Shown here piece by piece: positions 9,001 to 33,000 of a stretch of DNA of 64,000 nt (the stretch's first letter is position 1; every line of letters starts with the position of its first letter). Origin of the DNA: an uncultured Planctomycetales bacterium (GTDB lineage Bacteria; Omnitrophota; Gorgyraeia; Gygaellales; Profunditerraquicolaceae); NCBI GenBank assembly GCA_964545575.1, contig CAZJFL010000001.1, positions 221,812-285,811 of the forward strand, given 5' to 3'. The position numbers and the translations under genes were made by a program. Under the pieces are notes generated by a model that was not told where the DNA came from, did no database searches, and saw only the letters and a program-made list of their open reading frames with translations.

Positions 9001-12000
9001 CGGGATCCAAATATTTTATCACGTGTATGGCCGGCTGCTGCTTAGCCTCTAGCGGCGTCTTGCCTATGGCGCCGTCTACAAATTTGAAATTAATAACCTT
9101 GTTACCGGCCTTTAATCTGACCCTGATAGTTAAGGTTTTCTTATCCGCGCTTAAAGATTCTTTCAAGACTCTAAAACCCTGCTTTGACAGCTCATTCCTG
9201 AAACAATCGCTGCTGCTCTGAAGCGAGGCGGGGTCAGAAAAATCGTACTTCCTCTCCAGTAAGATAACCGTCTCTACTGACGGGCAGGACTTGACTAAAT
9301 CTGCGATTCCGGCAACATCAAAATATGCTCCCGGATAATAGATTACTTTCTTATCGCTTAAGGCATCCTTGATATATAAAGAACGTAATGCTTTAAAATA
9401 ACCCTGCGTAAACTTATAACCAGGCGTTAACCTGGCCTGCCAGCCATACTTATTGTGATCATCCAATTCTTCTTCTGCCTTCAAGGCGATCATCCAAGGG
9501 GCAAGGCCTAAATATTTCTTAATTAACCTCACTACCCCGCCTGCGCCAAGATCAGATTTCTTTTGTTCCGGCTTGATATTATATTCTGGCAGAATGCACA
9601 GCAGGGCAAAAAGCTCGTTCTCTGCATCTGTGCTTTCAGGATGAGCGATGACTCTGGCTTCATGGATAAGGGTAAGTAATAATTCAGTGCGGTTTGCATG
9701 ATTATTTAGAAGGGCCTCATCGAGATCAAGAATTTTGTTGCGGTAGGTTCCCCATATATAGGTAAACGGCCCGGCGCGGGTGACGATAGTATGGCGCATC
9801 TTTTCTAAGGCTGTGGTTACGCGATGGTCTTTACTGCCTACCTTAACCCTACGTATAGCTTCCTTGATAGCAGCATCAAGATAAGTTCTATCCGTAATCT
9901 TTTTGGCCTTGGCAATATCTTCTTGAATCTGCGCCTCTGTCGGCTGCATCCCGGGCTTTTTGCGGTGCGGGTCGGCTGAGGAAGCGGCGCTGGCAGCCTC
10001 CACCATTTCTTTAGCGAACTCATAATCATACAACGGCCTGCCGTCGCTGGTCCTTAAAGTCGCCCTGAGGATATCATAGAGATGCGGCCGCTGTTCTTCA
10101 AAGGGAGTATTCAGGCCGACGATTTGCTTACGCTTACGCTCCACTGCCTGAAGCCCAAGGTAGAAGGTTTCCAGGTCAAAGTTATCCAACAATATTTGTT
10201 CGGCTCTCTCCTGCGATATTCTAGATTGCACCAGCAATCCCTGCCCGGCCGCTGCGATATCGCGCTCAAACATCTCTTCCTTTGCCTTAAGCGCGGCTAA
10301 TAATTCAGTGTGGGCTTTTTCTGCGCGGTCTGGACGCGAACTCTGCTTCTCCAGTATATGGGCGACCTCAATTAAAGCAGTGTATTTGGCAACATAGTGT
10401 CCTTTTTCTTCTCTGATCCGCTCAAGCACGGTAAGCAGGTCCACCCCTTCGCCTTCTTCTACGCCGCCTAAATAAGAGATGATTGCCCGCTTTATCATAT
10501 GCCTGCCGATATCGCGGTGCGCCTGCCAATAAGGCTTACCCTGGGCGCGGCTTACTAAAAGGCCGAAGGTCAATTCCGTGGAGAGCACTGCCTGCATGCT
10601 TATAGGCTTGACCTGCATGATATGGATAAGGTGCTCCGGGTCAAGGCAGATATCCCGCGTCCCGTCTTCTTTTCTCTTGTTGCGGTCAATGCGGCGCTGC
10701 AGGTGATGCCTTAATACGCGCTTTAACATCCTGCTGGTAATATCGGTAATGCTGCCGATTTCAGGCACGCTTTTACCTTCAAACATCTCTCTGAAGTTCC
10801 AGTCAAATTCATCGACGCAGTTTAATACCCCTTTGCCGCCGTAACGCTTTGCCCGGTTATATAACTCTGTAAGCCCTTTTAAATCCTGCTCGTACTTGGC
10901 GGGGTTATCTTTTTGCTTGGCTACAACTGCCTCCTGGATAGCTGTTAAATCTATGCCCTTTTTAAATTTAAATATCTTTAAGTCGGCTTCGCGGGGGATA
11001 TCGCCCTTCTTTCTCTCCTGGGGAATTTCGTCAAAAAGGCCAAGATAATCGTCGGTTAATTGACATGCATAAACCTGGCCGTCAGTGCGGTATAAGGCCT
11101 CTTCAAAACCGGTGGAAGCGCCCGAGGGAGTGCCGGAGACCTCTTCTAAGAACATGCTGAATTTCTTACTATTCGGCACGCCCAAATAACCCCAAATCCC
11201 TAAAGTAGGATGGCCGGTATTTAAGGGTTCCTCCATCGCCAGGATATGGGTGCAGATTAAACTCTGCATTAATTTTTCGGTATCCGCTTCCTCCTCTTTA
11301 ATCCTGGCCTCTTCTTTAGCCAAGGCATCTGCTGCTAAGCCGGCTTTCCATTTAGCATAGCGCTCAAACATCCAGCGCTTGGCCTGGTCTATCTCTTTTA
11401 CCAGCTCGGTATCTTCGTAAAGCACCCCGCGCTCTGAATTTCCTCCTCCCCCGGTCTTTTGCCCGCGCGCCCTGAAGGCCATGGATAAATGCGGCTCGCG
11501 GCCATGGAAGGGGGCCTTGGAGCGGTGGGAGATGATTACCCCGCCGCCTTTACCGTAGACTACGGTTATGGCCACATCCGTTTCCAGAGTAGTTCCGACC
11601 TGGTTGTATTTAATCAGGGCGTCGTCGATTAAGCCCATTTCAAAGGCCCATTCAATTACTGAATCTTTGGTGGTAATCAGGTCATCACCGATGCGCCTAA
11701 AGGGTATCGGTACCGGCAGGTCTATCTCAATCTTATCTTTGCCCGGGATAATCACTTTTCCGTCGGGAGTCCTTTCAAAGGCAACTACCCTGCTCTGCAA
11801 TTGCCAGCCTGAGGTATCATCCTGGGCTAAGCCGTCCTCAACCGAGAGGATCGGAACGTTCTTCTCGATGATCGCCCTGGCAATAGCCTTTAAGATATCC
11901 ACAGCATCGTATAAATCAGGGTTCTTTGCATCTAGAAAAGCCAGGTATTTCATCGCATCCTCAGCTAATCCTTTCCGCTTACGCGCCTCAAGCACCCATT

Positions 12001-15000
12001 CGCTGCTGGCGATGTCAAAGGCTATTCCTACATCTTCTCCCGGCTCCAAATATTCATCTAAACTTCCTGGCTTGTGCACCGTGCTGATTGCCAAAGTCCC
12101 CAGGCGCCAGTTGCGTTCGTCAGCAAACTTATCCCCCTCTGCCCTCTCGACGATACCGGTAACCCCTCCTTCCGGGCCTTTGCCGCCTAAAGAGCAACCA
12201 TCGGTGCTGGCTAAGAGCCCTTTATATCTATTCTGAATCGCTGTCCTTAAGAGCCGGTCTATTTCCCCGGGATTCTCGTAGAGGCGCGCGCAAAGGATAA
12301 GCATCATCATCTCCTGGGAGCTAAGGTTGGTGCGGAACTTAGGCCAGACGTGCTTAGCACCCATGCCGAAATTTAAAAAATGATGGGCAGCAGCTACTTT
12401 TTCGCCATTCATTAAGACCGTCTCCCAGAGCCGGAAAAACTCCATGTCTAAGTTAAGCCTTAAGATCTTGTATTTAAAATCCCCCTGCGCTACGGGCTTT
12501 GCCTGTTTGGTCTTGCTGTCCCTTTCTCGTTTTGCCTCCAGTTTTCCCGGGTCGGCAAAGATAAAATCCAGGAAGCTCATCTCGCAAAAACTGAAGAACC
12601 ATCTGCCGATATAAGTGAAGAAGATCATCCCTGTTAACTGGCTTAATGCCATAAATAAGGGCCCCCCTATTGCGCCGATAATACTTAACCTGCGGCTGGC
12701 CAGGCGGCCTTCGGCCTCCTGGTCTAACTGCGGCTCTGCCTCGGGTTCAAATTTAACGCCGGTCCTTTTAATCCCCGGGAAGAGCCCGAAGAAGCCTAAA
12801 TAAATCATTTCCAGGTAGAATAAAATCCTTCTTGGCCTAAGCTGTTGTTTTAAGGAAGCAATGAAGGTGAGTTTTTCCTTATTCGTCGCCTCGGCAACAA
12901 TCAGCTCGCGTTCGGCAGTCAAGGTCTTAAAGGAAAACCATTTAAGCTTCATTATCAGGCTAAACTTGAGGTCTTGATAAAAGCGATAAGGCCTCCAGAA
13001 GAAATATTTAAGATTTTTCTTTTTATGCTCCTTGAATTCGTTATCCCGGTAAAAGTTAAAATCTGTCTGCGCCTTCTTTAAATCATTCTCCATCACCTCT
13101 TTGGATTTTAACGCCCCGACCTTAATCGCCTTAAGCACATGGCCTAAGCCTTCGTGCCAGCCCACAGCCGTAGGAAAAGCCACCCCCCAGATCATAGAGC
13201 CATAAAGCGGCTGGATAGAGACGAACATAAATTTTATAATATCCGCCGGATGATTATGCCCCGGGGGCATGCTTAAGGGGGAAAAGATAAAGATTGTCTC
13301 GATACCGGAATCAAAGATATGATTACCTTTGACCCAGTTTGCCTCTAATTTCGCTCTTGCGCCTTCATAAAGCTTCCTTAAGCTCGCCAGCCAGGGCAGT
13401 TGCTGGGCGAGGTCGCTTTCTTGGGCATCCGGGGTCCCTTCTTTCTTCTCCGGACGGCGGCCTACCTCGCCGCGATAGGGCTCAAGCTCATAAATACCCG
13501 AGGCCTCCCTTAAAACCTGGGCCAAGGATTTAGCAAATGGCTGCGCTTGGAGCTTCTGCACTAAAAACATACCAGCCTTAAACAGGTCCTGATAGGCAAC
13601 ATAATTAAAAAGATAAGACCAGAGCTCTAAAGCACAGGTCTTGGCTTTATCTTGCTGATATTTCTCTAAAGCAAGCTGGATACCGGCATTATCCGGCATC
13701 AGCCTAAAGATCTCCTCGCCTACGTATTTAGCAATCGCCTTGGCTAAAACAAGGTTGGCCGTACCCCGGATGCGCTGCCAGAGTTCTTCGCCGTCTAAAT
13801 GCGCAGCCAGCCTGTTTACGGCGCCGGAGGTAACTAAGGAGATCCCTGCGCCAAAACCTAATTTAAGCTGCAGGGCCTGGATCTGCTCAAACTCATCAGA
13901 GCTAGTGCTCAGCTTTCCGCGGCGCATAGATTCGTCCCGGTCTAAGCTAAGCAATTCTTTTTCTATGTCGATCAGGCTGCCGAGTTCCAGTAAGCGCCTG
14001 CCCTGGCCGGTTTCTGCGTCGATAAAGGCAGGCCGGATATAGCGATTAAAATATTCCAGGGCCTTCTGGCAGCCCATTCCGTTAGAGCGCTCAAAACGCA
14101 CGGTAAAAAGCCTCTCCAGCTCAGGGTCCTCCTGGGCCTTAATCAAGGCCAGGGCCTCTTCCCTGTCTTTAAAGAGGCTGGCGTTAAAAGTAAAGTTGCG
14201 GGTAGTCTGGTTAAATCTAAAGAGCGTTCTATATTTAGGGTGCTCTTTGCACCAGAGCTCGTCGAAATACTTCTGCGGCAGATCGTCCATTTCAATGATA
14301 GAATCAGTCAAGACCATGGCGTCCCCGGTTGAATGGATATCCGGGATAGATAAGGCGGCTTCAAATTGCAAGAGATCAAACCATTTCTGGCTGCCGTAGA
14401 TGCCGGCAAGGACATTCAATTTAAAGGTGGGGTCTCCGGAAGCAGTGGGGTATTCGCGCGGGATTAAGGCAGTGATGCGTAAGCGCGAAGCCAAAGTTTG
14501 CGCCAATTGCTCCAGTTCTTCAGGAGGCATCTTTTTAGATTCTTTCTCCAGGCGCTTGACGATCGCCCTTTTAGTCATTTTCACCAATCTTTCGTAGCGG
14601 ATTAAACTAACCATCCCGCTTACCCCGCCTACTGCCAAAACGTTCGGCTCCAGGCCAAGGGTCAGCTGGGTCTCTAAATCGTCGTCTGTACAAAGGGCGC
14701 AGCCGCCAATGGTAACATTCAAGCCTAAGAGCCGGGCAGTTAAAAAGGCATTGATCATCTCAGTCAAGCTCCCGCAACGGCCAGGGACAAGCACCACGGT
14801 ATTGGAATTTCCTTCCTCGCGCTTAAGCCGCGCTGCCAGGTCTTCGATAGAATCATCCCGGCAATAGATAGTGGTATCGTCGGCAATAAAGAGGGTCTGG
14901 CCTAATCCCTTTTCGATTACAGCACCGCTGGCATCCCGTTCTCCATAGTATAATTTATGGCTAGTGGCAGGGTCCTTGCGGTAGCAGGGGTTCTTATACA

Positions 15001-18000
15001 TAATAATCGGCATCCCGTCTTCATTGACCAGCTTCCTTAAGAGGCCCAGGTAATGCGGCGGCGTCAGCGAAGACTCTAAGCTGACCTCATAGGCATAGAA
15101 CATATAGCGGATATCCCCGGCGTTATTGGGCATCGCCTTATAGGCCTCGACCATCTCATCGGCATTGATCTCAACAATAAAGACTGCGTCCTTGCCTGCG
15201 ACTAATTTACGGCCTTTAAACTTGGAGTTATTCACTGCCTGCACCAGGTACCTTAAGATGCGCTGCTCCGGAGCAACCTCGCCTTTACCCTTAGGCACGC
15301 TTAAGACAAATCCGCCGCGCGGGCCCTCGCCATAAACAATACAGTCTTTTTCCGCAGTGCTCTTTACGGCATCCTGGAATTTTTCCGCGATTTCAAACCA
15401 GACCGGGCCCTTATCAGGCTCTTTGGCCAATTCGCCGACGAACTGCACCCAGATATTCCAGGTGACCGTGCTTTCCGGGAAGGAATCCTTGATCTGCCGG
15501 CCGCCTTCTACAAATAACTTTGCCTGGGTAGCATCTAAAACTACCCTCTTGATACCGTCTGCCTGGGGGCTATCAAAGAGGGTCTGGCCGTGGTCCTGAG
15601 CCATAATCTCTCTTTTTACCTCTGGGGCATGCTTTGCCCAGTCGCTTACGGTCATTGCCCCGCCTTTATGCGTTCTCTCTTTGCAGCGTTGTCTTGCGCC
15701 GGGGTCAGCGGTCCACCAGTCTAATCCAGCTGCCCAGAAGTTACCGAAGAAATAGCGGAAAAATCTGGTCAGCCATAACGACTGCGGCACGACAAAAGGC
15801 AGGAAGGATAACTGCAGGTTCTGATAGCTTAAAACCGAAGGCAATAAAATTATCGACATCACCAGCGAGAAGATGGCAAATTTCCCGCTGGCTATTGGCC
15901 CGGCAGCTAAGAACTGGTCAGAGTCTCCTTTGGTGGCCACAAAATATGCCGGCGGCTTTATCTTAGAGAAGAACCCTCTCTCCTTGGGCTTGTAGGCGAC
16001 AATCCCCGGGAAGAGCCCTAAAGGAGCGAAGGTCAAAATCTCAGCATATAACAGCAGGTTGATAAAGAAGAATGTTATCTTATCAAAAGCTAACTTAAAG
16101 AATGACTGTTTCTTCTTATCTGCCTGCATCCTGGCGCGCACTGCCTCCAGGGTCTTTAAGAATAGCTGGTGATGCAGGAACCTCTGGATATCTGCAGCAA
16201 GCAGGCTAAAGAAGGTTTTTAAATCAAACATGAGATTTTTATACCAGGGACGGGTTTTTCTCTGCTGGCCGTAATCCTGTCTTTGCTTGGCAATTTTCTG
16301 GCGCAGGTCTTTCTGGCTATTCTCTAATGTCGCGATCAGGTTCTCTTTGCTGACTAAAGTCCTTTCCATGATCGCGGCTTTCAGGTGGCCGGCGCCTTCG
16401 TGCCAGCCGATAGTATGGAAGTATTGGGCCAGGGTAATCAAGAGCGTTTCCGGTGCGCCTATAAGATAAGCCCAAATAATATAGAAATAGGTAGGATAGA
16501 CTGATTCTGGCGCCATGGTAAAGAGGGCGGCGGTATTGATAAAATAGCCCGGCACCAAGAGATGATTGACTAAGACCATCAGGCGGTCAAGAAAACCGGC
16601 GGCCAAGCCCGGCGCAGCATTCCCGCTTAATTCCCGGGCAGCGCGTTGAGTAGCTCTTTTATCGGAGAACACCTTTACCGCTATGCGTAACGAATAGAAT
16701 ATGGCCAGGTTAAGTAAAAGCGGCCCGAATGCCCGCGGGCCAACCACAGCCAAGAGGGATAAATTTAAGATAGTAACACCTAAGCCTAAGGCAAACTCTG
16801 TCAGATAAGCAGGCTGCAGGAGTTTTTTCAATTCAACGCTCAGGCCCTGGCGCGGGTAGTGTTTTTCTAAGAAGACAAAAGTTTTATTGATCGCGGTATT
16901 AAGTAGCCGCCCGGCTAAAGGTAATCCTTTAACAAAAAGCTGCTTTAGAGCGATAAACCCGAGAATGACCAAGAAGATGGCCTTACCTTTAAAGGCCAGC
17001 GCTATGGCAAGCGGCAAAAGTGTAGGAAGCGGGATGACGTTGTGTATGGCTTTAAGTATAGAGCGAAGGTTTGATTTGATGCGGCCGGATAAGGGGCCTT
17101 GCGGCGGGCCTTGCGAGTAGCCGCGGGATTTAAAGAGGAGTTTATAGAGGCCGTAGAGAATAGCGAAGCCGCAGGCAGCTACGGATAAAATCGGCTGACC
17201 CACAAGATATCCGGCAATGGCCAGGGCTAAAGAAGTGAGTAAAACCGGCGAATTTAAGATGACATTGCCGGCTCCCGATACACCACCCTTTCCTTGCTGT
17301 TGCATTAAACTTTCTAATTCTTTCAGGTATGGCTGCAATACGTCTAGAAATCTATGAACATCAATACCTCTATTAACCTCAATTATATTGTGGTCTAAGA
17401 AAAGATGGATATCCATTCTCGTCATCTTGTATAGTATTTTATTATTCTTTTTATCGAAGAGACAAATAAACACAGAAGGCATGCTTTTATCACAGATAGG
17501 GCATGTGCTTAAGCCTCTATCCTGAATGAGATAGCATTCAGGATCTGCCATGATCACTAACGGGCATATTTCTAGTGATTTATTATTCCTTATAGCCAAA
17601 AGGTAAGCAGCAACTTTACGGACTAATATGTCGGCAGGAGGAGCGGGAGGGGCAGGAAGAGCCAAGCTTTCTCTAATCGCCCTTATCGCCAAAATAGTCT
17701 GTTCTGGCGCTAAGACTGTTTGTAAAAGATGCTTATATAATAAATCGGCTTCATATCCTGTGATAGCATCGGCCAATGAATATAAAGCGGCAGCGAGATC
17801 GCTTGCATCTATAGGAGGAAGACGCTGAATACAGTCTTTATAATTCTCCAGACTAATCTCTAAGTAGTTACCAGCGGGATCACGCCGAGAAGCCAAAATA
17901 TATATAATCTTACCACTTGAGAGGAGCACATTTTGTAATAAATGTTTCCTCTCTGCCAAGAATTCCTCGACTTTTCCCAGATCCCAGCTGGTGTACTCGG

Positions 18001-21000
18001 TAATAGAGGATTTAATCGCTTGGACTATCCCGGGGCGGAATTTTAAATAGGCTAACTCTGCGGCTTTTTTCTCTTCGTAGTAGTCTATATAAGGTAATTC
18101 TGCCTGTAAATTCTCTTCGTGCGTGCCGCCACTTAACTCATGGACCGAGTGTTTAACTTGACGGTATAAAGGTAACTCACTACCATCATTGGCGTTAGTA
18201 GAGACGATGTAATCTACATCGTCATTGGCAGCATAGTAGGTGAGTCCATCCTGCTCATCTAAGATAGGTTCTGGCCCGGCGCGTAGGTGTCCACCTTTAA
18301 TCAACGCTCTTAATTTTGCCTCTTTCTCAGTCTGTCCGGTGGCCCGGTAGTATGCCAAGAGCTCTTGAGCCAGGGGATCATTCTCATCGGTGATTTGTCG
18401 GATGCCGGGGAAGTCGAAGCCTTTTGCCTTCATCCTGGCAAATTTAGCCTTAACTTGCGCCTCGGTCCTTCCTTCTCTGGGCTTGGCTGGGTCTTTTATC
18501 GACGCCTTGCGCGGGCATTCTTTACCATTAGTATTTTTACCAGCCGCTGCGGCTGGGGCTTCCTCCGGATGCAGAATCTTGTCAATCCTGGCAATAATAG
18601 CGGTGATTTCTCTTCTCTCCTGCTCATCACAGAAACCTAATCTGCCGCTATGAGTTGACGCCGCCATACCAAAAAGAATAACCAGCCTGTTGTGTAACTG
18701 CGCCCTTAAATGAGACATTGCCGCAGAATCGCCCTGTTTAAGATGAATGACTGCCGCGATATCATCTCTACCTTCACTAAGAGTAGTAGGGATGGTAGAG
18801 CGCAGTTTACCCATAGCATTACTAACTGCTTTTTTATCATAGCCTGCCTTTTTAGTTTTTTCTTTTTTAACTGCAACTTCCGGCTGCGCCGCAGAAGGCA
18901 GAGGCTTGCGCGCTTGGGCTAAATCCGGAATAAGGAATTCGGGATTTAAAAATGCTTCTTCAAGGCTCACGCTTAAATCCGTTTGCTTATTCTGGCCATC
19001 GACCATTAAAACAGCCAATTCTAACAATTTGCCTTCTAATTTATTCTTCTCCTGGGGGGCATAAGCGCTAATATAGCTTTCATACTCGCTCCCGGAGATT
19101 CTCAGCAATGCCTGACAATCAAGGGTAACCACCGCCAGTATGTTTTTCATAATATTGGCGCGAAGCTCTAATGCCGCATGTAATAGTTTTCTTGCCCTTC
19201 CCTGTTCTAAACGGCTTTCAACATCTTCTCTGCTATTACTGCTATAATGCGCTATGGCGCTTAATACTCTCTCCCGGATATTTTTCCCTGTGGGAATAAA
19301 AACACTTGGCGCCTCGCTGACAGCAGAAACAGCCGCGACTTCCTTGGGGTCATGCTGCACTGTCCCTGCTGGAGCCTCGGCTACCGGTCCAGCCACGGAT
19401 GAATCCGGTTCCCCTTGAGACGCCATTAGTGTTGATTTCGCTCTTCTTCTTGCACGCGCCCTATCAGCCCTGGACTGGCGACGGCGCAGTACGCTTCGTT
19501 TAATTGACGCCACCGCCTCATCCTTTAGCATCGCATAGAAATCTCCTTTTTTACCTAAAGCGGCTACGAGCTCGGCGAGACCGGCGCAGAGATACAACGC
19601 CCCTATAATTTCTACGATAAAAAGTGGCGTAGGCCCGAGTGAAAACGCTGCCCATGGCCTGATTACAAGAATTATAAAGGCATATACAACCACATTCGCC
19701 ATAAAGCCGCCGAATAGCGTCAGCAGACGGCCTGCAGCATGTCCGCCGGACTCCAATTTCACTTCTCCGGTATAGAATACGCCTTTTAGTCTGGCCTGCA
19801 TTTTTTGGCCGGTTATTTTCGCCATAATCATGTGGCCTAATACATGGGTGAGGGTAATTAACGTAAACATAAGGATTACACGTATAAAGGCGTTTAGAAC
19901 CGGATGGCTTTTCTTAAGGAAGCTGGCTAAGTAAAGATGTACCGTTCTATTTTTATCGGCCGCTGCGGCGGGCAATGAAGCCCTAAAGGCCCCCACCAGC
20001 CACGGAGAGGTGACCTTCCGCAGCGACCGAGGTATTTCCACTTGATACAACTTAACAAGCGGTTTACTAAAGCAATTAAACTCTTTGCAGACGATAAGCC
20101 CAATTTCTCTTGCCGCGCAGTATGCCTCGAATGATTCGCACTCACTTTTATGTATCGGGGCATAACAACCGTCGAGGTCATCGCCATGCAAAATATAACC
20201 ATGATTTTTGAGGGCCCTGATAACCGCATCAAACAACTTTTCCTTATCTGTTGTTTCCGTGGATACGCCAAGCATAATAATCGCCTTGGCTGAGTGCGGC
20301 TTGATTATAGCTTCTTCCATAGTAGTTGGGCGGTAAGAGATGCGGCCGGTGATATCTATGCCGGCGCGCTCCTTTACGGCGACTGCCGCCTCATCCACAA
20401 GCTCGCGTAGCGTATGGTTCTGCGTCCTGAATCTATTGGCGGGGTCAGAGCGAGTGTCCGGCTGAACTACGGTCACCTTTGCCCCGCAGGCTGCCGGATA
20501 AACAGCCTCTCCATACTTTGTGCGAGGACCAATGTTGATTACGCTATCGCCCCGCTTCAGGTACATTTCATCAGCTGCTTCCACAACCATGCCGGCTCTT
20601 AAAAGTTCTTTTACCTTTAAGAGTTTGGCGCGGCGCACGCATTTGACGATTAAATATACAACTATGCCTACCATAACCGTTAGGCAGATTACTAAACGCG
20701 CTACCTGCCCAAACTCTGCCTGCAGATGACTGAAGTTGAAGGGACTTGCACTGGCGACACCGACACCAGCCGCCGATAAACCAAGGGCGCATTTACCGAT
20801 CCTGGCTTTCATAAGTGCTCCCTGTACGGTATATATCCCCCCCGCAGTCCTATCCAGCTGCTGCCTGCCGAAAGAATGCCAATCAATCCGCGATTCATCT
20901 ATCGGTGGCTTATTCTTAAGCAACAATAAAATATTTATTAGTAATCTTCCGGTGCGGCCGTTGCCGTCTGAAAACGGATGGATATTAATGAATTCCAGAA

Positions 21001-24000
21001 ATGCTGCCGCCACAAATTCATAAAGCTCATCGTCCTTGGCAAATTTTTTACCTCTGATTACATTTAAGTTGGCGATAAGTGACTCCAGCTCCTCTGAAAG
21101 CTTATAGCGCAACGCAAACGGGTTCCGCGCCATAAAAGGACGGTCTTCGTTGGCCCTGAACCTCCCCATCACCCAAGACGGATTATCATCTTCATGCTTA
21201 GGGACAACCCGATTCATCTGCTGAAGCGCCTGCGCAGTAAATCCATCCTTATCTATACGCGAAAGTATTTCTCGGATTTTACCTTCCTCTACTTGCATGT
21301 TTTCGGCCACTGCCTTTATATGCGCCTGCGCAGACGGCTGCCGCTTACGCCGTGCGTGTGCACTCTCCCGCCTTATGCGTAATCCTAAAACCGTGCCTAC
21401 TGTGGCCAGCGCGCCGAGGCCAAGAATCAATTCCTGCGTCGCGCTTAAATCTATGCCGCAATATAAAACCAGCGTCACCAACCCCAAGCCCAACAGCCCC
21501 CTGCCGCTGCCGGGCAGCCGGCTCCGGATTTCGGCTAGCACATCTTTTGCTTCAGACGCCTCGCCCTCGCCGCGGGAATTGCCGTTGTCGCGGGAGATGG
21601 GATAAGGCTTATTTCCGTTATCGTTAGACACATTATTCTTTATTAGGTCATGTAAATACCAAAATAAATTAAAAGCGGCATCCGCAAAGAAAAGATACGC
21701 CACCAGAGGCATACTTTTAATTAAAGTGGCTACGCCTAAGGCGGCTGGCAATAGAATTGTGGCTAATCTCATTAAAGTTATCGAAAGCGCTTTCTCTTCA
21801 GCGAAAATAAAAATTGGCAATGCTCCGGGCCCTTTGGGTGGCCTTCGATTATTAAGAAGCCATAGGATAATAGTAATAGCTATGCTTAAGCCTGATAGCG
21901 AACTCATAAATAAATAATTTTTATCCGTAATTCCTATAAGATAACGCGCTACAATAGGCGGCAAGGCTATTCCCGACAGAATAATTAATGGAATTATAAA
22001 GGCGTACTTATGCCTGCTTATAAAGTTCTTGAGCCTTGAGGCAAGAGAAGGCGTAAGCGCTGCCTTCTCCTGCTTAGTGAGCGAGATTTGGCTTTGCGAT
22101 GAGAAGATTTCTGGCTTTCTCTCGGATGAACTCGGCTGCCTCGTTGCTGACTTCAACCCAGTTGCCAGCGCTCGTCCTGCCGCAGACTTTGCCGTCGGGC
22201 AGAATGAAGAAGTCATACTCATAGGACCAGTGGTCGTATTTGGCAGACGCCCATAACCCGCCTTTAATAGGAGTGACTCTACAAACCTCAAGATTCTGGA
22301 AGTTACACATCGGACACCTCCTTTTGTTTGTCTTGCGGCTAATAATTCTCTATCACTCTTAAGCAGCGCCTGATGGTCGGCGAAACTGTGGATATAGAAT
22401 ACTGCCGTGGCTATCAGCGGCAGAAAAGCCGACGCTTTATCTATACTGCCCAATATGTAGGCTGCCGCAAGAGATACTATCGACATGATAAAACTCACCA
22501 GCGGCCCGGCGCGTAAAGATTTCCTTGCCAGTAAATGTCCGAATTCATGGATGCCCCAGCCAACCAGTGAAATAATCAAGGAGGCCACAACGGAAAATGC
22601 CAGCCAGACCTGCCAGAGAGCGGCATATTTATTTCCCGGGCCAAGGCAGATAAAGAGCGTGCCGATTACCGCCCCCGCCAGCCACCCGCCCAAGAGGTAT
22701 TTCCAGTTCAGCTGCGGCTTAAGCGCCTCGTCCTCGCCGCGGTAGGCGGTATATTTATCCGCTACAGCAGAAAGGTATTCTGCAACATGCGCACCTACCG
22801 GATACCGCCCGCTTACTTCTATGGGCCATTTTACGGTCAAAAGGAACGCACAATCTTTAGTAGGACTGTAATTGCGTACGGTATAATAATTCCCCTGCCC
22901 CTTAAAGATAATCAAATCTGCCTGCTGCCAAGCGCGGAAAAATTCCGGAGAAATACGCGCTAAATCAGTGCCTAAGGCAATAGTGCCGGTGCCAATAATT
23001 TTTAAGCCAGCAAAATCCCGGCCAAAAATTTTCCGGATGCCTTCATCTGCCAACAGCCCTGCCAAATCTTCTCTTGTCGCATCATTAGAAGCGGGAAGCG
23101 ATTTCCCTGCAAAAGTTACCTTATGGCCAAGATTAAGCAGCTCGTTTATCAACGCTAAATCAAAAACGTCTTCGCCTACGTTATCGACTACGTACACAAT
23201 ATTCATCTGCTCGCGGAGCAATCTTTCTTTTAATTTTTCCGTATCATTCTTTTTCCAAAAATCAGCCGCGGCAAAATCACTTTCTATAATTTTCTCTACT
23301 AAAGAGAAGCCATCGGAAAGGAGCGCTTCGCGTATACGCGGCTCTGATAAATCTAAAATATTTCCGATTACGCACAAACGTAATGCCGCTTCCAAACGAT
23401 CTGGCGCCTTATTAATCAAAGTTAGCGCCTTGCCTAAAAGTGAGAATGCGGCAGTACGGATACCTTGTTTATACTGCCAGTCGGGATCAGCGAATTCCAC
23501 GGCAATGCGTATAATCTCTAAATCTACCTCTAAGACTTCATAGCTGGTCCAATCTTTTATCCGCGGCATTGCTAAGAATGTTTTGATGGCAGAGGCAAAT
23601 TTCTCCCTTACCTTTTCGTCAGGAACCGCCCTTTCCAAAAGCCTAAGATCGGTTTCACGACGCCGGTTGATTAAGTTAGTGGCAGAATCGCTACCTGCGA
23701 GCATATCTCTTATAAATGTACTGCCGTAATGATATTCGCTTGTCGGATGAGCTATCGCATTTAGCACATAGAGCTTGCTGCGGTCAAAGTATCTAATGAC
23801 ATTTTCTACGAACTCTTCAGGGCTAATTTTTCCCGCTAAAAAGCTCCTTCTCAATAATAGCGCGCTATCTTCAAAATCTTCCCGCAACAGGGCATTAACA
23901 TCTACCGGTGTCAGTAATAAAATGGCTTTGGATACCACCCAGCGCAAAGGATCAAGGTTTAACGCTGCTATATCAATACCATATTGGGCGCAAATACTAG

Positions 24001-27000
24001 ACACCCTCCGCGAAAGCTGGGCGTGTTCAGAATTATCTATATTGATAGTCCTGCTAAAATTATCCAGAACTGCCATGCGATTTTCTCCATCCGGCAGGAA
24101 TTGCAAACATTCTCTGGCGATATCATCTTCGTGTTCTTCCAGTAAATAGAAATAAAGGTTGCGGATTCCTTCCTCCGTATCCCTGATCGCCTCGCCATTA
24201 TCATCGCTTAGGCCTTTAACGATGTGGCTGATGAGCTCATGATACAGGATTTCGATTTGTTTGGCTTCGGGAAGGCTAAAGAAATACGGATGGAAATATA
24301 CGGTCTTGGAGGCAATATTGCATACGGCGACGTGGACTTTGTCGCCTACAGTAAAGTAAGGTTCGAAGTTAGTGACAATCAGCTGCCAGTCAGATAACTC
24401 CGGCGGCGCGCGGCCAAAAAACTGCTCCAGCAATTCTAAGGCCTTCCTCATCATATCTTCATCCCGGCTTCCTAATCTGGAGCCTTTAAGCGATGGAACG
24501 CGGAAACCTTCTCCCCGCGCCGCATACCAGAGATTAGGACGGAAGTTACGCTGCCGTTCTAGAAAATCCCGGGGCACTTCTAGCGGATGGGCGTTGGGTT
24601 CATCGGCATCCTTTACTTCTTTATTAATGACTACCCCTGAATCTTTCGTTACTGTACCAACTACGCCCCCGACTTTTCTTGCCAAAACAACCTGACCACC
24701 CTGCGCTGCTAAATCCTCGGCAGCCTCTGTTATATTTCTTCTTGCCACTCTTAAGTCTTTTGCGTTCCTGGTATAGCGCATTACCTGGCCCTCTTCATCG
24801 ATGGACTGGCCTGTTTCATCTACCATATCTTCTAAATCATCAATGGCATTACGCAACGCCTCTTTATCATGTGCCACTGCCAACAGGTATTGCGCCAGGC
24901 TTAAGCCTTTAATCCTGGCGATAGATGCAGAAATCCAGGGAGCGCTCAAGCCCACAGACTGCCTGTCACCCTCTACTAACTCTAATCTGACGTAACCACA
25001 CTGATATTGGCGCAGCCTGGCGAAACTTGCGCTCAAGCTGGCAAGGGAATTTATGAATTCCTGCTTTTCTTTGTCCCCGTAAGTATCAAGATCCAAAGCC
25101 GCTAGACCGCAGGCAGCCAGATGTATTCTCTTTAACACAGCCTTTTCTGCGTCAGAAAGGCGCTCATAAATCCCAAAAAGCTGTCTTCTATATTCCATCT
25201 TGTAGCAGGAAGCATCATTAGCTGCTCCGCCCCGCGCTCTAAATTCACCTTCGCTATAGATAAGACAACGCTGCATATCCATATTTCCGTAATGCTGGGG
25301 TTTATTCTCATCATTATCCTCGAGCAGTTGCGCAGTGGCATTACTGACGCCTAATTTGCTCAGCCGCCTATTTAACTCATCCCTGTAGCGAGAAACCTGC
25401 ACCCTAGAAAGATTCCCCTGATAATACAGGGTGAGCCGGTCGATATCGCAACCTACCATCCATAAGCCCAGATTAAACGAGCAAAGCATCGAGCTTATCT
25501 CGCTGATCCTCGCCCCGGTCTCGCTTTCTAATTTCTGCATAAAATCTTTTAAGGCAGCTATGATCGCCTCTGTGCCTTCGGGAAATCCGTATTCGCTCTG
25601 CGCTACTACATCACCGTTATCTACCGACCCGCCGTTGTCGCGGGAGCCGTTGTTAGAATCACTATCCCGGCGTTCTAACGAAGCGATGTAATCTAGCTTT
25701 CTCTGTATCTTGCCTGCCAAAGATGGCTGGAGCCTTACTACTTCTACCCAGTCCGCCCTGGTCTCGCTAAATTTTCCTAAGATAGCATGGGCATTACCGC
25801 GATTATAAAGTGCCTCAATATCTTCAGGATCTATTTTAAGTGCTGAGCTAAACCAATTGACGGCTTCACTAAACTCGCGCGCTTGCGCATAGATAATCCC
25901 GGTATTCACATGGGCATCGAGATTCTGCTGGTCCAATGCAATCGTCTGGGAATAATCGGAAAGGGCTTCCTTGGTATAGCCATTATCTAAATAGCTTAGC
26001 CCCCGGTTAAAGTATACGTTTGGATTTTGTGGATCAAACCCTAAAGCCCGGTTAAAGCAATTTAAGGCATTCTTAAAATCTCCTGCCTTAGAATATCTGA
26101 CACCCATTTTATCTAACACAGTGCAAATTAGGCCATCTTTATCCATTAACCTGATACGCCGATGCATATCTGTGACTCTGCCTAAATTAGAAAGATACTG
26201 ACTGCCAGACTCAGCCTTAAACTCATCTTCTAAGACAAAAATATGGCTTACTTTATGATATGCTAAATCTACCAACGCCTTCATATTGTTAGCAAGATTA
26301 AGTAATATGGCTACATGCGAAACCCGCTTGCCCCATATGTTTACGGTAATACTGATGGGGATTACCGTTAAGCCGACCGCTTTTGCGATGACAAAGAAAA
26401 GCTGGGTGAACCCTACGCAATCAGCCTTCCTCTGCTCAACTATATCTTCAAGATCAAACGCGCTTGCTTCTTCCATATCGGATTCTATTGCGGGATTAAG
26501 GGTATCGAAAATCTTTGCTGCGACCTTCACTTCCGCGCGAACTTTCCTTTCTTCGTTGCCACTTTGCCTTACATCCTCAAGCAAACCTTTAAGCTCCAAA
26601 ATATCTATCCCTAAGCTATCTAAAAACTCTCCTATGCTCTCGGATACCCTCTGGGGATTATCTATGTAACTTAACTCCTCAAGCTGAGCACGAAGTAATT
26701 TTTGCGCTCTGACCCTTGCTGTATCATCTAAAGAGCCGCCGTTGTCCACCGAGCCGGCGCTATCGCGGGCAGAACATGCCAATAAGGCTGCTCCCACCAA
26801 TGCCGCATCTACCATTTCTTTTACTTTTGGAATCTCATCGGCTAATATCACAACAAAATCATAGCTTTTATCTGTAAGTTCTTTTTGCAGTGCGGGCAAG
26901 GCATACCGGCGCGCCGGCTTACTTAACAGCCACCCTCCCAAAATAAATATGCTTGTTCCTTTCACGTCCTGCCAGAACTGAGCTTCTAAGCGAGGCTCTT

Positions 27001-30000
27001 TGACTACTCCTTTTCTGGGTTCTCCCTGCACGCCTCCTTCATAAGCCATAATCATAGTCCTTGCAATGGCTTCTCCCGCTTTTTGATAATAACCCCGTGC
27101 TATATCTCTTGCTTCCAAGTCTTCGCTTTCCGTCAACTCAGATATAAATTCTCCGGTTAACGCCTCAGCGCCAAATTTATGGAATAAATATTCGTTCTTC
27201 TTTGCTTGATATTCAAATCCTTTACCAGTTGCCAAATCTTCCGGTAGTAAGCATCCCGGGATTACCCTACCGCCTTCGCCTTTTTCTAAGATTATATCGA
27301 AGAACTGTTGCGGGCCCGAGATAGGTATTATTTGGCCATTCCTGATAATAAAAGCTCCTGCGCCAAAGCCGCTACCCGGAATAAATCCGGAAATTTTTGC
27401 GCCTTCCTTAACTACTTTTCCTATTTGTGTAAGGCTCTCTTTATAGACTAAAAGGCAATGCGCCATAGCTAAAACATGCGCCACTCCATCATTATTAACT
27501 ACCGCACGCCATTCAGAATTTGTTATCCTAGATAATTTTTTGGATAACTCCTGCGCTAATGTAAAATTCTCCAAGTCCGGCACATTAGGACTCGTTCCAT
27601 GGTAAGGCACGCCTTCTTCCAGCCAAGCCCCGGGGGCAGATACGCCTATTGTTTTTATCAAAGGGTAATTGTATCTCTCTCTAATCTCTGAAAGGCCGGC
27701 CCGTAAAATCGTCACGATTTCTTCTAAGGTAGCTTCTATATCAGGGACTTCTTTTCCCCCTACAGTTTTTGTGGGGCTCTTTATAATTTTCGGGTCAAAA
27801 AGAAGCTCGGGAACGCCGATAATTCTTCCGTTAATTATTGACGCTTTTACAAATGCTACCCTTGCGTGAGTTCCTCCTATATCAATTACAGGGATTATTT
27901 TTGTTGCGATATCCGCCAATGTTGTAAACTCGATATTTAATCTATGTTCAGTATAATCTAAGATGGCCTCGCTTTCCCGGATATCTTCCCACCCCAATTT
28001 AAATATTCTTCTTTCTCCCAATGCCTCAAAAAACTTCTGGCTTACGATAATATATAATTTTGCTGCATCGCCAATGGGGGCGCCGATCCAATACCTAGCA
28101 ACGCGGCTGCCTTTCTTATAAATAAAACCGAGGATGTGCGAGCCAGCTAAAGTCTTACTGTAACATTCTAGGGTATTAAATTCTTCTCCGGCATCATTGC
28201 TATTTCCTGTGGCTTCATATTCGAGCGATGTTTTATCCCCGTCATCCATAAGGGTAAATGTAAAGTGCGCTTCTATAGCTGGACTAAATTTTTTGTTTCT
28301 GAAGTGGCCAACGTATTCAAAAGACACCGCACCCTCACTCTTTATCGCCACATCTTTACCATCTTCAGAATCCCAATTGCTACCCAAAGGAATAAAACGG
28401 TATCCGTCATATCTGCTATGCCTACGCATAATCTCTTCTTGATGATCTTTGTCTATCGGGTTTCTCTTCCCCTCCGCGCCGAAGGCGGTATCGCAGGAAC
28501 CGCCGTTGTCCACCGAGCCGCCGGTATCGCGGGAGGACCCCGTCCTTAAATAGGCCTTATTTACATCCTGCACCCAGATAATATCGGCTTCCTTATTTAT
28601 AAATCCACGGAGATCCTGAAACTGGAATTGCTCCGAGGTAAATTCATTTATGACTTCGTCCACAGTTTTTCCTCTGGCTAATTCTTTGGCTAATTTGCGC
28701 TCAAGCCTGACCTTAGAATCCTCAAAGGTTATGGCTATCTTCAGGTCCAATAATTCTGTGATTCTCCGGTCTTCGGCTAATTTAAAAGTTCCGGAAATAA
28801 TAAATACATCTAGGTCCATAGCTATACTTCTACCTTCCATCTCAAAAGGACTTCTTTGATTAACTTTTATTAAAAGGTCCCTTATAATAGCTAAAAATGT
28901 TCTGTATTGGGGATCCTGAGGACCTATAAAAGCATCGAAGACTTCGGAACCTATATTTACGGATACCGCCTTGATACCGGCGGCATTCAAAGAAGAATCT
29001 AAATGGTCTGTTAATGTCTTTTTGCCGGAACACGGAAGACCGAATATTCCGATGATTAAAGGCCTCTTTGTGAGCTTCGGTATTAAATCCAATAACATCG
29101 CGATGAAATGCTCATCCTGCTGATCTTCGGACCCACCGTTGTCCACGGCGCCGCCGTTGTCCACCGAGCCGGCGTTGCCGCGGGTCATGAATAATTCTAA
29201 TCTCAAATCATATTTCCAAACCGCCTCTTTCATAACCCCGAAGAATTTAAAGGCAGCCTTAAATATGCCTCTTAAGTCAGTAGGATTCTTCAGGAAAACA
29301 GACAGTTGCGGATTAGCAAATAAAAGATACATTGGCTTACCAGTAGCTATCTTTAATTCAGGAATCTCTGTGGCGGGTTCAGCAAATCTTATCACTGCAG
29401 GATTACCATATCTGGGATTAAACTGTATTGTAATCTTGCCTTTCTCATTCCTTATAATATGGTATGCGTAGCCCCTGCGTGACTCTATTTCGCTTGAATC
29501 AGTCAAGACCTCGGGAGATTCAGTAATGCCTTCTTTGCCTCCGACCTCGCGGCAAATCCAGTTAGCTATCACCAAAGGCGCGTTGCCTCTATTGATTACA
29601 CGATGGGAATAATTAGGATTGATCATTACCTTTTCCCCCTGCTTGGCAAAGGTAATGATGGCTTCAAACCGGCAGGTTTCCGGGTTAATTCCCTGCTGAA
29701 TGTAAATAGCCTCACCATACCAGACCTCACATACCTCAGGATAGATATCTCCCTTTACAGAAATTGGATTTTGGTGCCCTCTAGTCATGATAAACTCAGG
29801 ATCCAGCTCCTTATTGATTACCCCGGGCAGCAGGACGATAAGATCAAATCTTATATTATTCTTCTTAATAGCCCCTCTATCGGATTTCAGGCCTACGTCG
29901 CGGTAGCCATAATAAACCACTCTGTCCCGCTCCTGCTTTGCTACTTGGGGCTCAGCGATGCTGTAGGCAATATCTTTAAGCGTCCGGCTCCATTTACCCT

Positions 30001-33000
30001 CAGAGGCAACCTCTTCGCCAAGTGCGATTTCGCCGGTGGCCAAATCAAGGGTTACCGGCAGGCCGGCAAAACCGGAAAGGTCAACCGCCTTGCTGGCCGA
30101 CCCGCCGTTGTCCACCGAGCCGCCTTGACCAGCTTGCAATTGCGCTCTTATTTTATCTGTTTTAAGCCCGCCCTTTAGCGGCCTTCTGGCTTGGTGACCT
30201 AAATCCGCAAAGGCACACGGCACGATCAGGCTCTCGTCTAAATCAAAGATCCTGGCTATACTAAGGCCGATTTGATATCTGCTGAGCTGTTGCGGCCCGC
30301 TGATATGATAAATGCCGGATGCGTTCTGCGCGATCAACCGCTCTATCGCATCGGCTAAACACCCCACCGCTATAGGATTGGTGTACATATCGTCAGCCAG
30401 CCTGATCTGGCGGCCCTGGCGACAAGCGCCGGAGACTTGTGCCGTAAACTTTGAGCCTAAGCCCAAGATCAGGGTCGGCCTGATAATCAAATAATTAGAG
30501 CGCGTATAGCGGATGGATTTTTCCGCATCTAATTTTATTCTACCGTACTCATTCACAGGAATAGTAACATCACTTTCTGAATAAGGCCCGTTTTCTCCGT
30601 CAAAAACATAATCTGAAGAGATGAATACAAGCTTGGCGCCGATAAATTTACTTATTTCAGAGATATTCTCTGTGCCTAATACTTGTATTTGAAATACTTC
30701 TTGGGGGTGTTCCTCGCAATAATCTATATCTACCATGGAAGCTGCGTGAATAACCACCTTAGGCCGTAATTTGGTTAATAAAGCGCGCACTGCCTTTGCA
30801 TCTCTTACGTCCAAGAAATAACCATTGTCAACTTTATTTCGATAGTATGTCCCGCTGGTCTTATAACCGGCTGCGGATAATTTACGCATCAGTTCCTTGC
30901 CAAGAAACCCTGACGCACCGATCACTAATATATCTACAGCTTTAGCCGTCTCTACCTCCTGCTTCAAGACGCCTTGAGATTCCAGGAATTCAGCAAGCAA
31001 CATAGTGCCGATAGCATAATATGCCAAAGAGTGCCTGCCGGTAGGATCCTGGCTGAGGCGGTTTACAGCATCGGCAATAAAATGCGTGGCTTCGGCAAAA
31101 AGCGCTTTGGCTAACCAGTCCGGCTCATCTTTTAAGAGTTTATTCAGCGTAGAATGATGAGCCAACAGCCCGGGCAAAGCAGCTCTGGCTTTCAGGAAAT
31201 TCGCAACTGCAGACTCGCTATCCCAGTATCCAAGCTCCATACGGAAATCCTCGTCTTCCTGCCAAATTCCTAATTCAAAGCGGTTATTGCGCACCAATTC
31301 CAATAAGATTGAATGCAGTATCTTGCCCAGCTCATAAGTAATATCTATCTGCGTAGGTATGCTGCGAGGTAAATCTACTCCGCGGATGTCTATCAGGCGT
31401 AAGGCTCCTCCTTCTGTCCTTAACACATTCCTTAATAATAAATCTCCGTGGGCGTAACGCGGGATAAAGCCCGGTTTTAATTTCTCTAATAACCCCGGCT
31501 GGGATTTCAAAAGAGCAAGCAGACGGGGTAAATTCGGATATTTTCTGCCATTGATATAAATATTTCTTGCCGCGAATAAATCCTCAAATAAATACGAAAT
31601 ATCCCTGTATCGATTGTTTTGTATCGTAATTGCCCTGTCTTTTATCAGGCGGCTGTAGGTAGCGGTTGTCCTATCGGTAAAGAGGCCCAGGCGGTAATCC
31701 ATCCTCTTTAGATGAATCCTATCTACGTAATCTTGGGGAACTTCTAACCTGCCTTGAGAATAAACAAAATCGCAAAGTAAATCTAGAAGACCGGATATCG
31801 TCTCTAAAAACTCTTCTGCCGCGGTAGGCGGATGATTAAGAAAATAGAAAGGTAAAGGTTCTGCATTCTCGATATATTGAGATGTGTAAAATACATAGCC
31901 CTCGCCTTCAACATAATCATAAACTTCAGGAATCAAAACTTCCGCCTCAGTAGGTAAAGTTTCTTTTAATTCCTTCAATCTCTTGTATTGGGCTTTTAGC
32001 CACGCTACACCATTGGCGCCGATGCCTTCCCAGTCAGAATATTTTAATATTACTATTCTACCCTCGCCATCTCTTACCAGGAAGGTCGTGGCTGAACTTC
32101 CGCCGTTTCTGATAACGTCTAAAATTTCGTAATGCTGCGTAACCTCCGGAGGCAGGCGCTCAGATAAAGCGTTTCTATTTCTAAACCCGTGGTAGACGCT
32201 TCCACCGTTATCCACCGAGCCAGTGTTGTCCACTGAGCCGTCTGAAATAACCGGCTTTTCATTTCTCGCAGGCGCAAATATCGCTCTTAATCTCTCGATG
32301 GCCTCCTGAGGGCTTAATCCCTGATTATTATGCAAAACATACGTTCCGGATATAAAGATACCGGCGCCTTTTTTGATCGCCTCAATGATCGTTTCCCCAT
32401 TAATGCCACCCTGAACCATAACCGGCTTAAAGAACTCCCTTGCCCGTAGCTGGTCAATCTTAGCTAAAGCTTCTAACTCAGTAGTACCGCCTATCTTGGC
32501 AGTAGGTATTGCGGAAACTACTATGCGGTCAACTTCGGATAATATTTCTTCCGGAACCGCGCTTATCTGCTCATCCGGCTCAATCACTACGCCTGCTTTT
32601 ATGCCGAGGGATTTCAGGTAGCGAATTCTCCTTAAAAGCCTTGCCTTATCTCTTCCAAAGGCGTCAAACTGCAAGTTGATGCTTCTGACTATACCTGTTA
32701 CCGCAAATGCCCTCAGGTACTTCTTAGATGGCTGCCAAGATAAGAGATGCACATCAAAAGGAAAATCCACACCTGCCAAGCTCATCTTCTCGATTAACTG
32801 CGGATTAAATTGGGCGGTGTTATCGGGATATTCGGTATTAGCATTTTCTCTGCCGGTGCGCTCAAAATAGGCGTTGGAGCGGACATCAAAATGTATCCCA
32901 TCTGCACCTGCCTCCTGGAGTATAAGGGCGGCACCAATTAAAACCTCATCGCTTACTTTACCCAATACTGATAGTGGCACATAAATTTTATAATTTGACT

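Follow-up and report, generated by a model that had tools for sequence, protein, structure and literature searches.

Does a Fic active-site motif that lies deep inside a giant open reading frame (ORF) belong to a working protein-modifying enzyme, and what would such an enzyme do there? This question is raised by a 64,000-nucleotide stretch of an uncultured Omnitrophota genome (contig CAZJFL010000001.1), which is referred to here as the window. The initial annotation of the window placed a Fic catalytic motif at positions 20945-20980, in the main frame of a giant protein and without naming a strand, and our analysis bears this out. Specifically, HPFSDGNGRTGR is the direct translation of nt 20980..20945 on the minus strand (aa 14341-14352) and is in frame with the giant ORF. 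The pattern HPFx[DE]GN[GK]RxxR has this single match in all six frames, against an expectation of 1.1e-7 from the amino-acid composition of the ORF, which excludes a chance origin of the motif. Judged by the evidence below, the motif constitutes the active site of an authentic Fic (FIDO-fold) module of ~180 residues in which fold, signature, and flap are all present, and the module is a predicted nucleotidyl-transferase.

To our knowledge, giant bacterial proteins are hardly understood, be it in whether they function as one chain or in the control of their dozens of enzyme modules. A domain that modifies proteins, has an intact motif and no autoinhibitory helix, and is built into the membrane between metabolic modules gives a tangible way to study such proteins by experiment. 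Should it be merely one more shuffled domain, it would have little importance; Fic domains are widespread.

The Fic active site and its fold

A six-frame scan shows that the host frame runs stop-free on the minus strand from nt 64000 to nt 2 (21,333 codons) and is open past both ends of the window; therefore, the full protein is longer than 21,333 residues. The runner-up open stretch in the other frames has at most 226 codons. Residues are numbered from nt 64000, such that aa n starts at nt 64000-3(n-1).

The profile search for the Fic/Doc family that the initial annotation had proposed supports a canonical Fic domain inside the giant protein. Pfam Fic (PF02661) is matched across the whole model, at profile positions 2-93 of 93, with an E-value of 5.2e-14 and a score of 53.3 bits (gathering score, 24), and the match recurs in larger chunks of the ORF. 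In NCBIfam, the SoFic, NmFic, Doc, XopAC, VopS, and AnkX equivalogs were matched only below threshold, with 28.6 bits against a cut-off of 550 for the SoFic equivalog, 26.4 against 38.65 for DOC_P1, and 10.3 against 1400 for T4SS_AnkX. By these profile scores, the domain is Fic and stands outside every named equivalog. The motif has the canonical DGNGR form and fits neither the Doc variant HxFx(D/N)(A/G)NKR nor the AnkX variant HPFRDANGR. In addition, a sequence search of the Protein Data Bank (PDB) gave FICD/HYPE as the top matches (E 4e-8).

The predicted structure is in line with the profile. When aa 14165-14460 were modeled with AlphaFold, the core was confident, with a predicted local distance difference test (pLDDT) score of 90-97, and the flanking helices were floppy. 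The model trimmed to aa 14219-14402 has a mean pLDDT of 88.1 and a predicted template-modeling score of 0.85, with pLDDT 92-98 over the active-site region. As expected of a FIDO fold, the model is all-helical, with the active-site loop between alpha4 and alpha5 and the flap before alpha3; three helices (aa 14224-34, 14239-52, and 14256-65) precede the flap. When the AlphaFold model was compared with the PDB using Foldseek, the best 50 matches were all Fic proteins, and AnkX, Doc, and a CDP-bound Fic were among the structural neighbors. The initial annotation had allowed that the surroundings might not be Fido-like despite the motif; instead, the profile match spans the model, and solved Fic structures can be superposed on the predicted fold. 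Within the flap, the Gly is invariant, and the pattern GxYR/GxFR is common to class II relatives and to the Omnitrophota subfamily described below. The flap registers the target peptide in Fic enzymes (PMC3667792).

The inhibitory-helix position and the membrane flanks

In Fic proteins, the Glu of the inhibitory helix sits where the gamma-phosphate of ATP should meet the second Arg of the motif, and in each of the three Fic classes, members become active in vitro when this Glu is mutated or deleted (PMC3667792). The initial annotation had recommended a search for the inhibitory motif (S/T)xxxE(G/N) in cis, and this search came back empty within ±400 residues of the active site. Over the whole ORF, [ST]xxxE[GN] has 16 matches, as many as chance would give (16.2), and those closest to the active site lie at aa 13066 and 15072. 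We found no motif helix N-terminal or C-terminal of the core, as would mark the autoinhibited classes II and III, and the C-terminal helix ends in KARIGK, without a Glu. In class I toxins (VbhT/VbhA and FicT/FicA), a small adjacent gene provides the inhibitory helix; the 64-kb window, filled by one ORF, contains no adjacent gene.

We searched 5.8 billion protein clusters using only the soluble domain as the query, without the flanking membrane segments. The nearest stand-alone relatives obtained are class II Fic proteins of small size (~230-300 aa), and almost every one carries SNxIEG ~129 residues before the catalytic His. In our first alignment, this slot corresponds to the second helix of the hydrophobic hairpin, with A..VG opposite S...EG. 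In a second alignment (A2), the slot is the polybasic linker RRESAHARRKRQ, and its S, R, and R (SAHARR) lie opposite the S, E, and G that hardly vary among the relatives. Both candidate slots are low-confidence regions of the model. The class II relatives have as many helices separating the inhibitory helix from the flap as our module has ahead of its flap (three); consequently, an inhibitory helix would have to occupy the position of the present membrane anchor. Altogether, these comparisons indicate that the canonical cis inhibitory helix is absent, with a predicted transmembrane hairpin and a polybasic linker in its place. This distinguishes the module from class II stand-alone Fic proteins such as BT_2513 (PDB 3CUC) and the Firmicutes “Fic family proteins,” which are small and soluble and possess the SNxIEG helix, whereas the slot here is without Glu. 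The stretch MQVEEG (aa 14235-14240) was considered as a cryptic inhibitory motif but dismissed, since it falls in the loop that joins the first two core helices. This position is one helix further on than in the class II relatives, and the stretch is unconserved in the subfamily.

The initial annotation described the Fic motif as lying between transmembrane segments and other modules, which agrees with the strongly hydrophobic segments at both flanks of the domain and with the enzyme modules elsewhere in the ORF (Table 1). Upstream, the hydrophobic segments pair as hairpins with inner loops of 2-3 residues (KS and TQE), and the loops between hairpins are basic. Downstream, a loop of 16 residues separates the two C-terminal segments, and the helix at aa 14437-14455 is followed by 6 K+R in 15 residues. 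The membrane-proximal 15 residues at the two sides of the Fic-bearing loop together contain 8 K+R, of which 7 fall in the 13 residues that follow the N-terminal hairpin. From hydropathy and the positive-inside rule, we infer a cytoplasmic position for both ends of the Fic loop and for the beginning of the next module, if the weakly hydrophobic segment that follows the domain crosses or dips into the membrane. An ATP-dependent enzyme needs the cytoplasm, and a cytoplasmic side is likewise expected for the Fic domain because an ATP-using enzyme is placed here among sugar-phosphate enzymes.

A membrane anchor is also found in FICD/HYPE, the metazoan BiP AMPylase/deAMPylase, a dimer that is held by one N-terminal anchor on the lumen side of the endoplasmic reticulum and that uses E234 for autoinhibition and deAMPylation. 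In contrast, the present module is without such a Glu, is tethered at both ends, and is part of a protein of >21,000 residues. We note that FICD likewise joins TPR repeats, a membrane anchor, and Fic; the spacing in the giant ORF is far larger, and the resemblance may be coincidental.

Relatives and candidate functions

An exhaustive HMMER search of 1.84 billion representative proteins gave 568 matches at E<=1e-3 (best, 61 bits), and the whole-domain matches are internal modules of large proteins. These include P0093 (3,828 aa), P0109 (2,703 aa), P0111 (1,817 aa; NCBI MFH0753033.1, Candidatus Omnitrophota), P0119 and P0239 (1,577 and 2,294 aa; MBU3759218.1, 1,577 aa, Candidatus Omnitrophica), P0098 (1,104 aa), and P0220 (4,115 aa). 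Altogether, the full-domain relatives span 1,104-4,288 aa, with one additional frame of at least 6,745 aa, and five are labeled Candidatus Omnitrophota or Omnitrophica. The identity of the window domain to its relatives is 23-33%. The subfamily signature comprises the flap G-x-[YF]-R, the stretch AEA[FY][IL]RFIxIHPFxDGNGRTGRxLINLLL, the pattern D..LI.W, and the C-terminal helix L[IL]RxAQxGK (here ALMKARIGK). The inhibitory motif (S/T)xxxE(G/N) occurs in none of the subfamily relatives over the aligned region. Several relatives have the canonical active-site motif, two have DANGR, and two are degenerate (HPFANANDR and HPFSNGSGR). BLASTP similarity to other Fic-bearing large proteins stops at the borders of the Fic domain. 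Therefore, orthology with these proteins was ruled out, and the Fic domain is, on this evidence, a shuffled module, with no evidence of orthologous giant proteins.

A scan with the subfamily alignment over one genome per GTDB species returned four loci, three of them titled Candidatus Omnitrophota. At one of these (L004, the same as L005; JBAYGD010000001.1 / Ga0172379_10000053, locus 2-20236), the frame is open across 20.2 kb and past both ends, encoding at least 6,745 aa with 33 hydrophobic windows, Fic as the sole Pfam match, and the motif variant HPFFDANGRTGR. As such, there is at least one other Omnitrophota giant ORF with a predicted Fic module of the same subfamily. A further locus (L003) holds a 4,288-aa ORF with HPFNDANGR. 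The Fic modules of P0220 and L004 lie near clusters of hydrophobic segments. A scan of metagenome contigs with the subfamily profile recovered only a contig already found in the genome scan and a 1.9-kb fragment. When the 5.8-billion-cluster set was searched with this profile, the result was swamped by small generic Fic proteins and did not return the alignment members, and it is uninformative on the frequency of Fic in giant proteins. In the literature, our search found no paper naming both “Omnitrophota” and “Fic domain.” Together with the window domain, the relatives apparently constitute a small, undescribed Fic subfamily, predicted to be inhibitor-less and embedded in large Omnitrophota proteins.

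The window domain resembles these modules in whole-domain alignment, in signature, in having no inhibitory motif, and in its residence in a very long multi-domain protein. It differs in what follows: the relatives continue into a post-domain extension, whereas here membrane segments come directly after the domain. This extension of ~100 residues (…RYG…DFLNW[IM]R…T.LS..EY.EF.KIL…) is conserved in P0093, P0111, P0119, P0098, P0220, and L001-L004, starts ~20 and ends ~120 residues past the motif, and matches no Pfam family; the window copy is without it. The hosts differ as well, with regulatory or no Pfam domains in the relatives and a chain of metabolic enzymes here. Specifically, the Pfam domains that share the relatives’ proteins are HATPase_c, HPr, HTH, and DUF7790, and the co-residence of HATPase_c, HPr, and HTH suggests a regulatory setting. 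HATPase_c (GHKL ATPase) and Fic occur in one protein in both P0093 and P0220, with HATPase_c ~250 residues downstream in P0093. Bacterial Fic toxins are known to modify the GHKL ATPase domains of GyrB and ParE, and by this analogy the HATPase_c/Fic pairing hints at a possible class of cis targets.

Given this setting, we favor, with about evenly balanced confidence, the reading that the module is a membrane-tethered, cytoplasm-facing AMP transferase without autoinhibition and with a regulatory role within a giant multi-enzyme protein. In Fic enzymes, the catalytic His activates the target hydroxyl, and the target segment is held in register through beta-strand pairing with the flap. The alpha- and beta-phosphates are bound by the anion nest, where the post-motif helix has its N-terminus, and the gamma-phosphate by the second Arg if no inhibitory Glu intervenes, after which AMP is transferred (PMC3667792). 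In the window module, with no inhibitory Glu to contend with the gamma-phosphate for the second Arg, ATP would be bound in the mode that permits catalysis. AMP would then be passed to a Ser, Thr, or Tyr hydroxyl of a nearby protein, and the candidate targets are a neighboring module of the same polypeptide or a soluble partner. The module would thus be a local regulatory switch and not a toxin. A narrower version, which we consider distinctly improbable, is that the inhibitor-less AMPylase acts on the megaprotein’s own enzyme modules, or on those of adjacent copies, and switches a membrane-bound sugar-phosphate/glycolytic “assembly line.” Control would in that case come from geometry or membrane state, with the transmembrane anchor in place of the inhibitory helix. 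If true, this would represent intramolecular post-translational control in one giant multi-enzyme protein and would define an Omnitrophota-specific Fic subfamily.

Several points weigh against the regulatory AMP transferase. Lack of the inhibitory helix is typical of secreted effectors and favors such a role here as well. Inhibition could be provided by an element that acts in trans, or by a remote region of the protein beyond the window, and a non-canonical inhibitory contact could exist within the domain. The first post-domain segment is only weakly hydrophobic (Kyte-Doolittle mean ~1.0); if it does not span the membrane, Fic and the next module are on opposite sides. In addition, the degenerate motifs of some relatives imply that catalysis is not uniformly constrained in the lineage, and no ortholog of the giant protein was found in protein, genome-contig, or metagenome-contig searches.

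The effector alternative, to which the first of these points leads, holds that the Fic domain is exposed on, or proteolytically released from, a giant surface protein and AMPylates proteins of an attached prey or host cell, much as VopS, IbpA, and Bep effectors do. Secreted Fic effectors (VopS, IbpA, and AnkX) are typically without an inhibitory helix, as is this domain. A role in predation and cleavage into pieces by protease domains of their own have both been proposed in the literature for Omnitrophota giant proteins, the same ORF contains a Peptidase_M54 module, and the weak hydrophobicity of the post-domain segment allows an outside location. We nevertheless regard this alternative as unlikely: hydrophobic segments hold both ends of the domain, the juxtamembrane flanks are strongly basic, the surrounding sugar-phosphate and glycolytic modules need cytoplasmic substrates, and the relatives co-occur with HATPase_c, HPr, and HTH instead of delivery modules. 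This alternative is also the nearest to the toxin idea of the initial annotation, which had reported a YD/RHS-like region and likened the protein to polymorphic toxins. Neither point is supported by our scans. No RHS or YD Pfam family was matched at E<=1e-3 anywhere in the ORF, nor were pre-toxin or secretion-related Pfam domains, and YDxxG occurs 3 times in 21,333 residues. Moreover, the domain is internal and tethered at both ends, the relatives’ modules sit beside regulatory and not toxin-delivery modules, and, in place of the C-terminal position of a toxin, at least 6,981 residues follow Fic in the window, including the enolase and pyruvate phosphate dikinase (PPDK) modules. In proteins of the IbpA type (Histophilus somni IbpA; P0162, 4,564 aa), the Fic domains, which are often duplicated, occupy the C-terminal region of a secreted passenger resembling filamentous haemagglutinin; our Pfam scans of the giant ORF found no such passenger repeats or secretion features.

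Other readings concern what the active site does, if anything. The same fold might carry out a different chemistry (GMP, UMP, CMP, or phosphocholine transfer) or act mainly as a deAMPylase, which we judge to be quite unlikely. Several transfer reactions are known on the FIDO fold, the structural neighbors of the model include enzymes of this kind (AnkX, Doc, and the CDP-bound Fic), and two subfamily relatives carry HPFxDANGR, a Gly-to-Ala change that occurs also in AnkX. Against this, the window copy has the canonical HPFxDGNGRxxR, the signature associated with AMPylation and not that of the Doc or AnkX variants, and deAMPylation of the FICD type depends on the inhibitory Glu that is absent here. 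That the module is a catalytically silent remnant, retained as a structural or binding part of the giant protein, is in our view very improbable. Omnitrophota giant proteins are mosaics with little conservation, the motif is degenerate in two relatives, and homology with the other large proteins is limited to the Fic module, all of which would fit a remnant. However, an unconstrained relic would be expected to lose its signature, as P0220 and P0098 did, whereas all catalytic residues and the flap are intact here, in a motif with a chance expectation of 1e-7 and a confidently modeled active site. Finally, PADLOC models of SoFic and of the candidate system PDC-S04 match the domain at E 8e-13 to 8e-14, which would suit a toxin-antitoxin-like or anti-phage defense Fic captured in the giant ORF. 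These matches are confined to the common Fic core (query residues 79-213 of 296), the SoFic equivalog score lies far under its cut-off, and there is no antitoxin, inhibitory helix, or separate gene in a 64-kb window that is one ORF; we consider this origin extremely improbable.

For the Fic field, the locus contributes a small subfamily, not remarked on before, whose members have no inhibitory helix in what appears to be a non-effector context. Each unusual feature has a precedent: the inhibitor-less Fic in effectors, the membrane anchor in FICD, and the multi-thousand-residue host in IbpA.

The host frame and its enzyme modules

We mapped the giant ORF with Pfam in nine overlapping chunks at E<=1e-3 (Table 1). 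From the N-terminal side, it contains ROK, NUDIX, CofD, PMM/HAD, PGM_PMM I-IV, ribulose-phosphate 3-epimerase, a GatZ/KbaZ aldolase-like domain, Peptidase_M54, and PGI. It continues with PRK/uridine kinase, a second epimerase, RmlD/epimerase, a cupin-type GPI, a MeaB-like P-loop domain, TPR repeats, an ARMT1-like phosphatase, Fic, ~3,000 residues without a match, the enolase C-terminal domain, and PPDK in three domains. A single polypeptide thus strings together central-carbon and sugar-phosphate enzyme domains.

This architecture is already published and is not a new kind of system. “Archaeovorins” combine PGI, PGM/PMM, aldolase, and PPDK with many transmembrane regions (West-Roberts et al. 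2023; 10.1101/2023.11.21.568195), and an inner-membrane-anchored “multi-enzyme metabolic cluster” class with ROK, PGM/PMM, and NUDIX has been described (Nielsen & Lui 2026; 10.64898/2026.06.07.730766). The present protein resembles both in being one ORF of >20 kaa with many hydrophobic segments and with ROK, PGM/PMM, PGI, aldolase, NUDIX, TPR, and PPDK. Accordingly, three features of giant multi-enzyme proteins or Archaeovorins are found here, namely an ORF of >10 kaa, many predicted transmembrane segments, and sugar-metabolism Pfam domains. An Omnitrophota host is supported indirectly by this architecture and by the Candidatus Omnitrophota labels of the Fic relatives. Fic is not mentioned in the main text of these two papers or in that of Seymour et al. 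2023 (PMC10066038). The Fic module is therefore best seen as an interesting detail within an already described type of giant protein.

Table 1. Positions of the Fic module, its flanks, and the other modules of the giant ORF, in N- to C-terminal order
Feature	Coordinates (nt)	Strand	Basis and remarks
ROK	51320-52171	minus	Pfam
NUDIX	49379-49573	minus	Pfam
CofD	42773-43873	minus	Pfam
PGM/PMM I-IV	40286-41629	minus	Pfam
First ribulose-P 3-epimerase	38873-39487	minus	Pfam
GatZ/KbaZ	36650-37714	minus	Pfam
Peptidase_M54 (archaemetzincin-type), aa 9287-9381	35858-36142	minus	Pfam, 50.7 bits, profile positions 108-194/194
PGI	34865-35542	minus	Pfam
Second ribulose-P 3-epimerase and PRK	32336-33610	minus	Pfam
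Cupin GPI and RmlD	29540-30934	minus	Pfam
TPR repeat run	25763-26095	minus	Pfam; ~1,600 residues upstream of the Fic motif
ARMT1-like damage-control phosphatase domain	22826-23638	minus	Pfam, 133 bits; ~600 residues upstream of the Fic motif
Helical hairpin, hydrophobic, immediately before Fic, aa 14169-14187 and 14191-14209, loop TQE	21374..21496	minus	Kyte-Doolittle mean 1.91 each; two helices in AlphaFold model, low confidence
Polybasic juxtamembrane linker RRESAHARRKRQP, aa 14210-14222	21335..21373	minus	7 K/R in 13 residues; pLDDT <50
Fic/FIDO domain, aa 14223-14400: three N-terminal helices, flap, alpha3, alpha4, active-site loop, C-terminal helices	20801..21334	minus	
Pfam Fic (PF02661) match, aa 14254-14359	20924..21241	minus	Pfam; scores in text
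Flap region opening with conserved G-R-F-R, aa 14279-14297	21110..21166	minus	Alignment
Catalytic signature HPFSDGNGRTGR (catalytic His, Mg-binding Asp, GNG anion nest, Arg1, Arg2)	20945..20980	minus	Direct translation; roles predicted from sequence
C-terminal tether: weak Gly/Ala/Ser-rich segment aa 14402-14420, loop, hydrophobic helix aa 14437-14455, then RRAKLLKVK	20636..20797	minus	Kyte-Doolittle means 0.95 and 2.69
Enolase C-terminal domain	11417-11692	minus	Pfam
PPDK (three domains)	761-3766	minus	Pfam

Two long parts of the minus-strand frame, nt 52000-64000 (aa 1-~3900) and nt 11700-20635 (aa 14456-~17400), gave no Pfam match at E<=1e-3. A lenient Pfam scan of aa 13854-13999, 14456-14703, 14813-15579, and 15776-17400 returned noise only, such as Methyltransf_11 at E 0.13 just past Fic, and no clue to a target. 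In both of these blank stretches, the frame is open and hydrophobic segments are clustered. With a crude predictor (hydropathy >=1.6), there are 71 hydrophobic windows in the ORF, clustered between the soluble modules.

The composition of the Fic region does not set it apart from its host. Its GC content is 0.48, and its GC content at third codon positions is 0.51, compared with ORF means of 0.466±0.036 and 0.49±0.07; recent horizontal insertion of the module was ruled out, since both values are within one standard deviation of the mean.

In published work, peptidase domains of the C39 or S8 type have been put forward as proteases with which giant proteins might process themselves, and the metzincin module of the giant ORF could be another candidate for this role. 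The ORF list also contains four plus-strand ORFs of 184-222 aa; these are antisense to the giant frame and are probably spurious.

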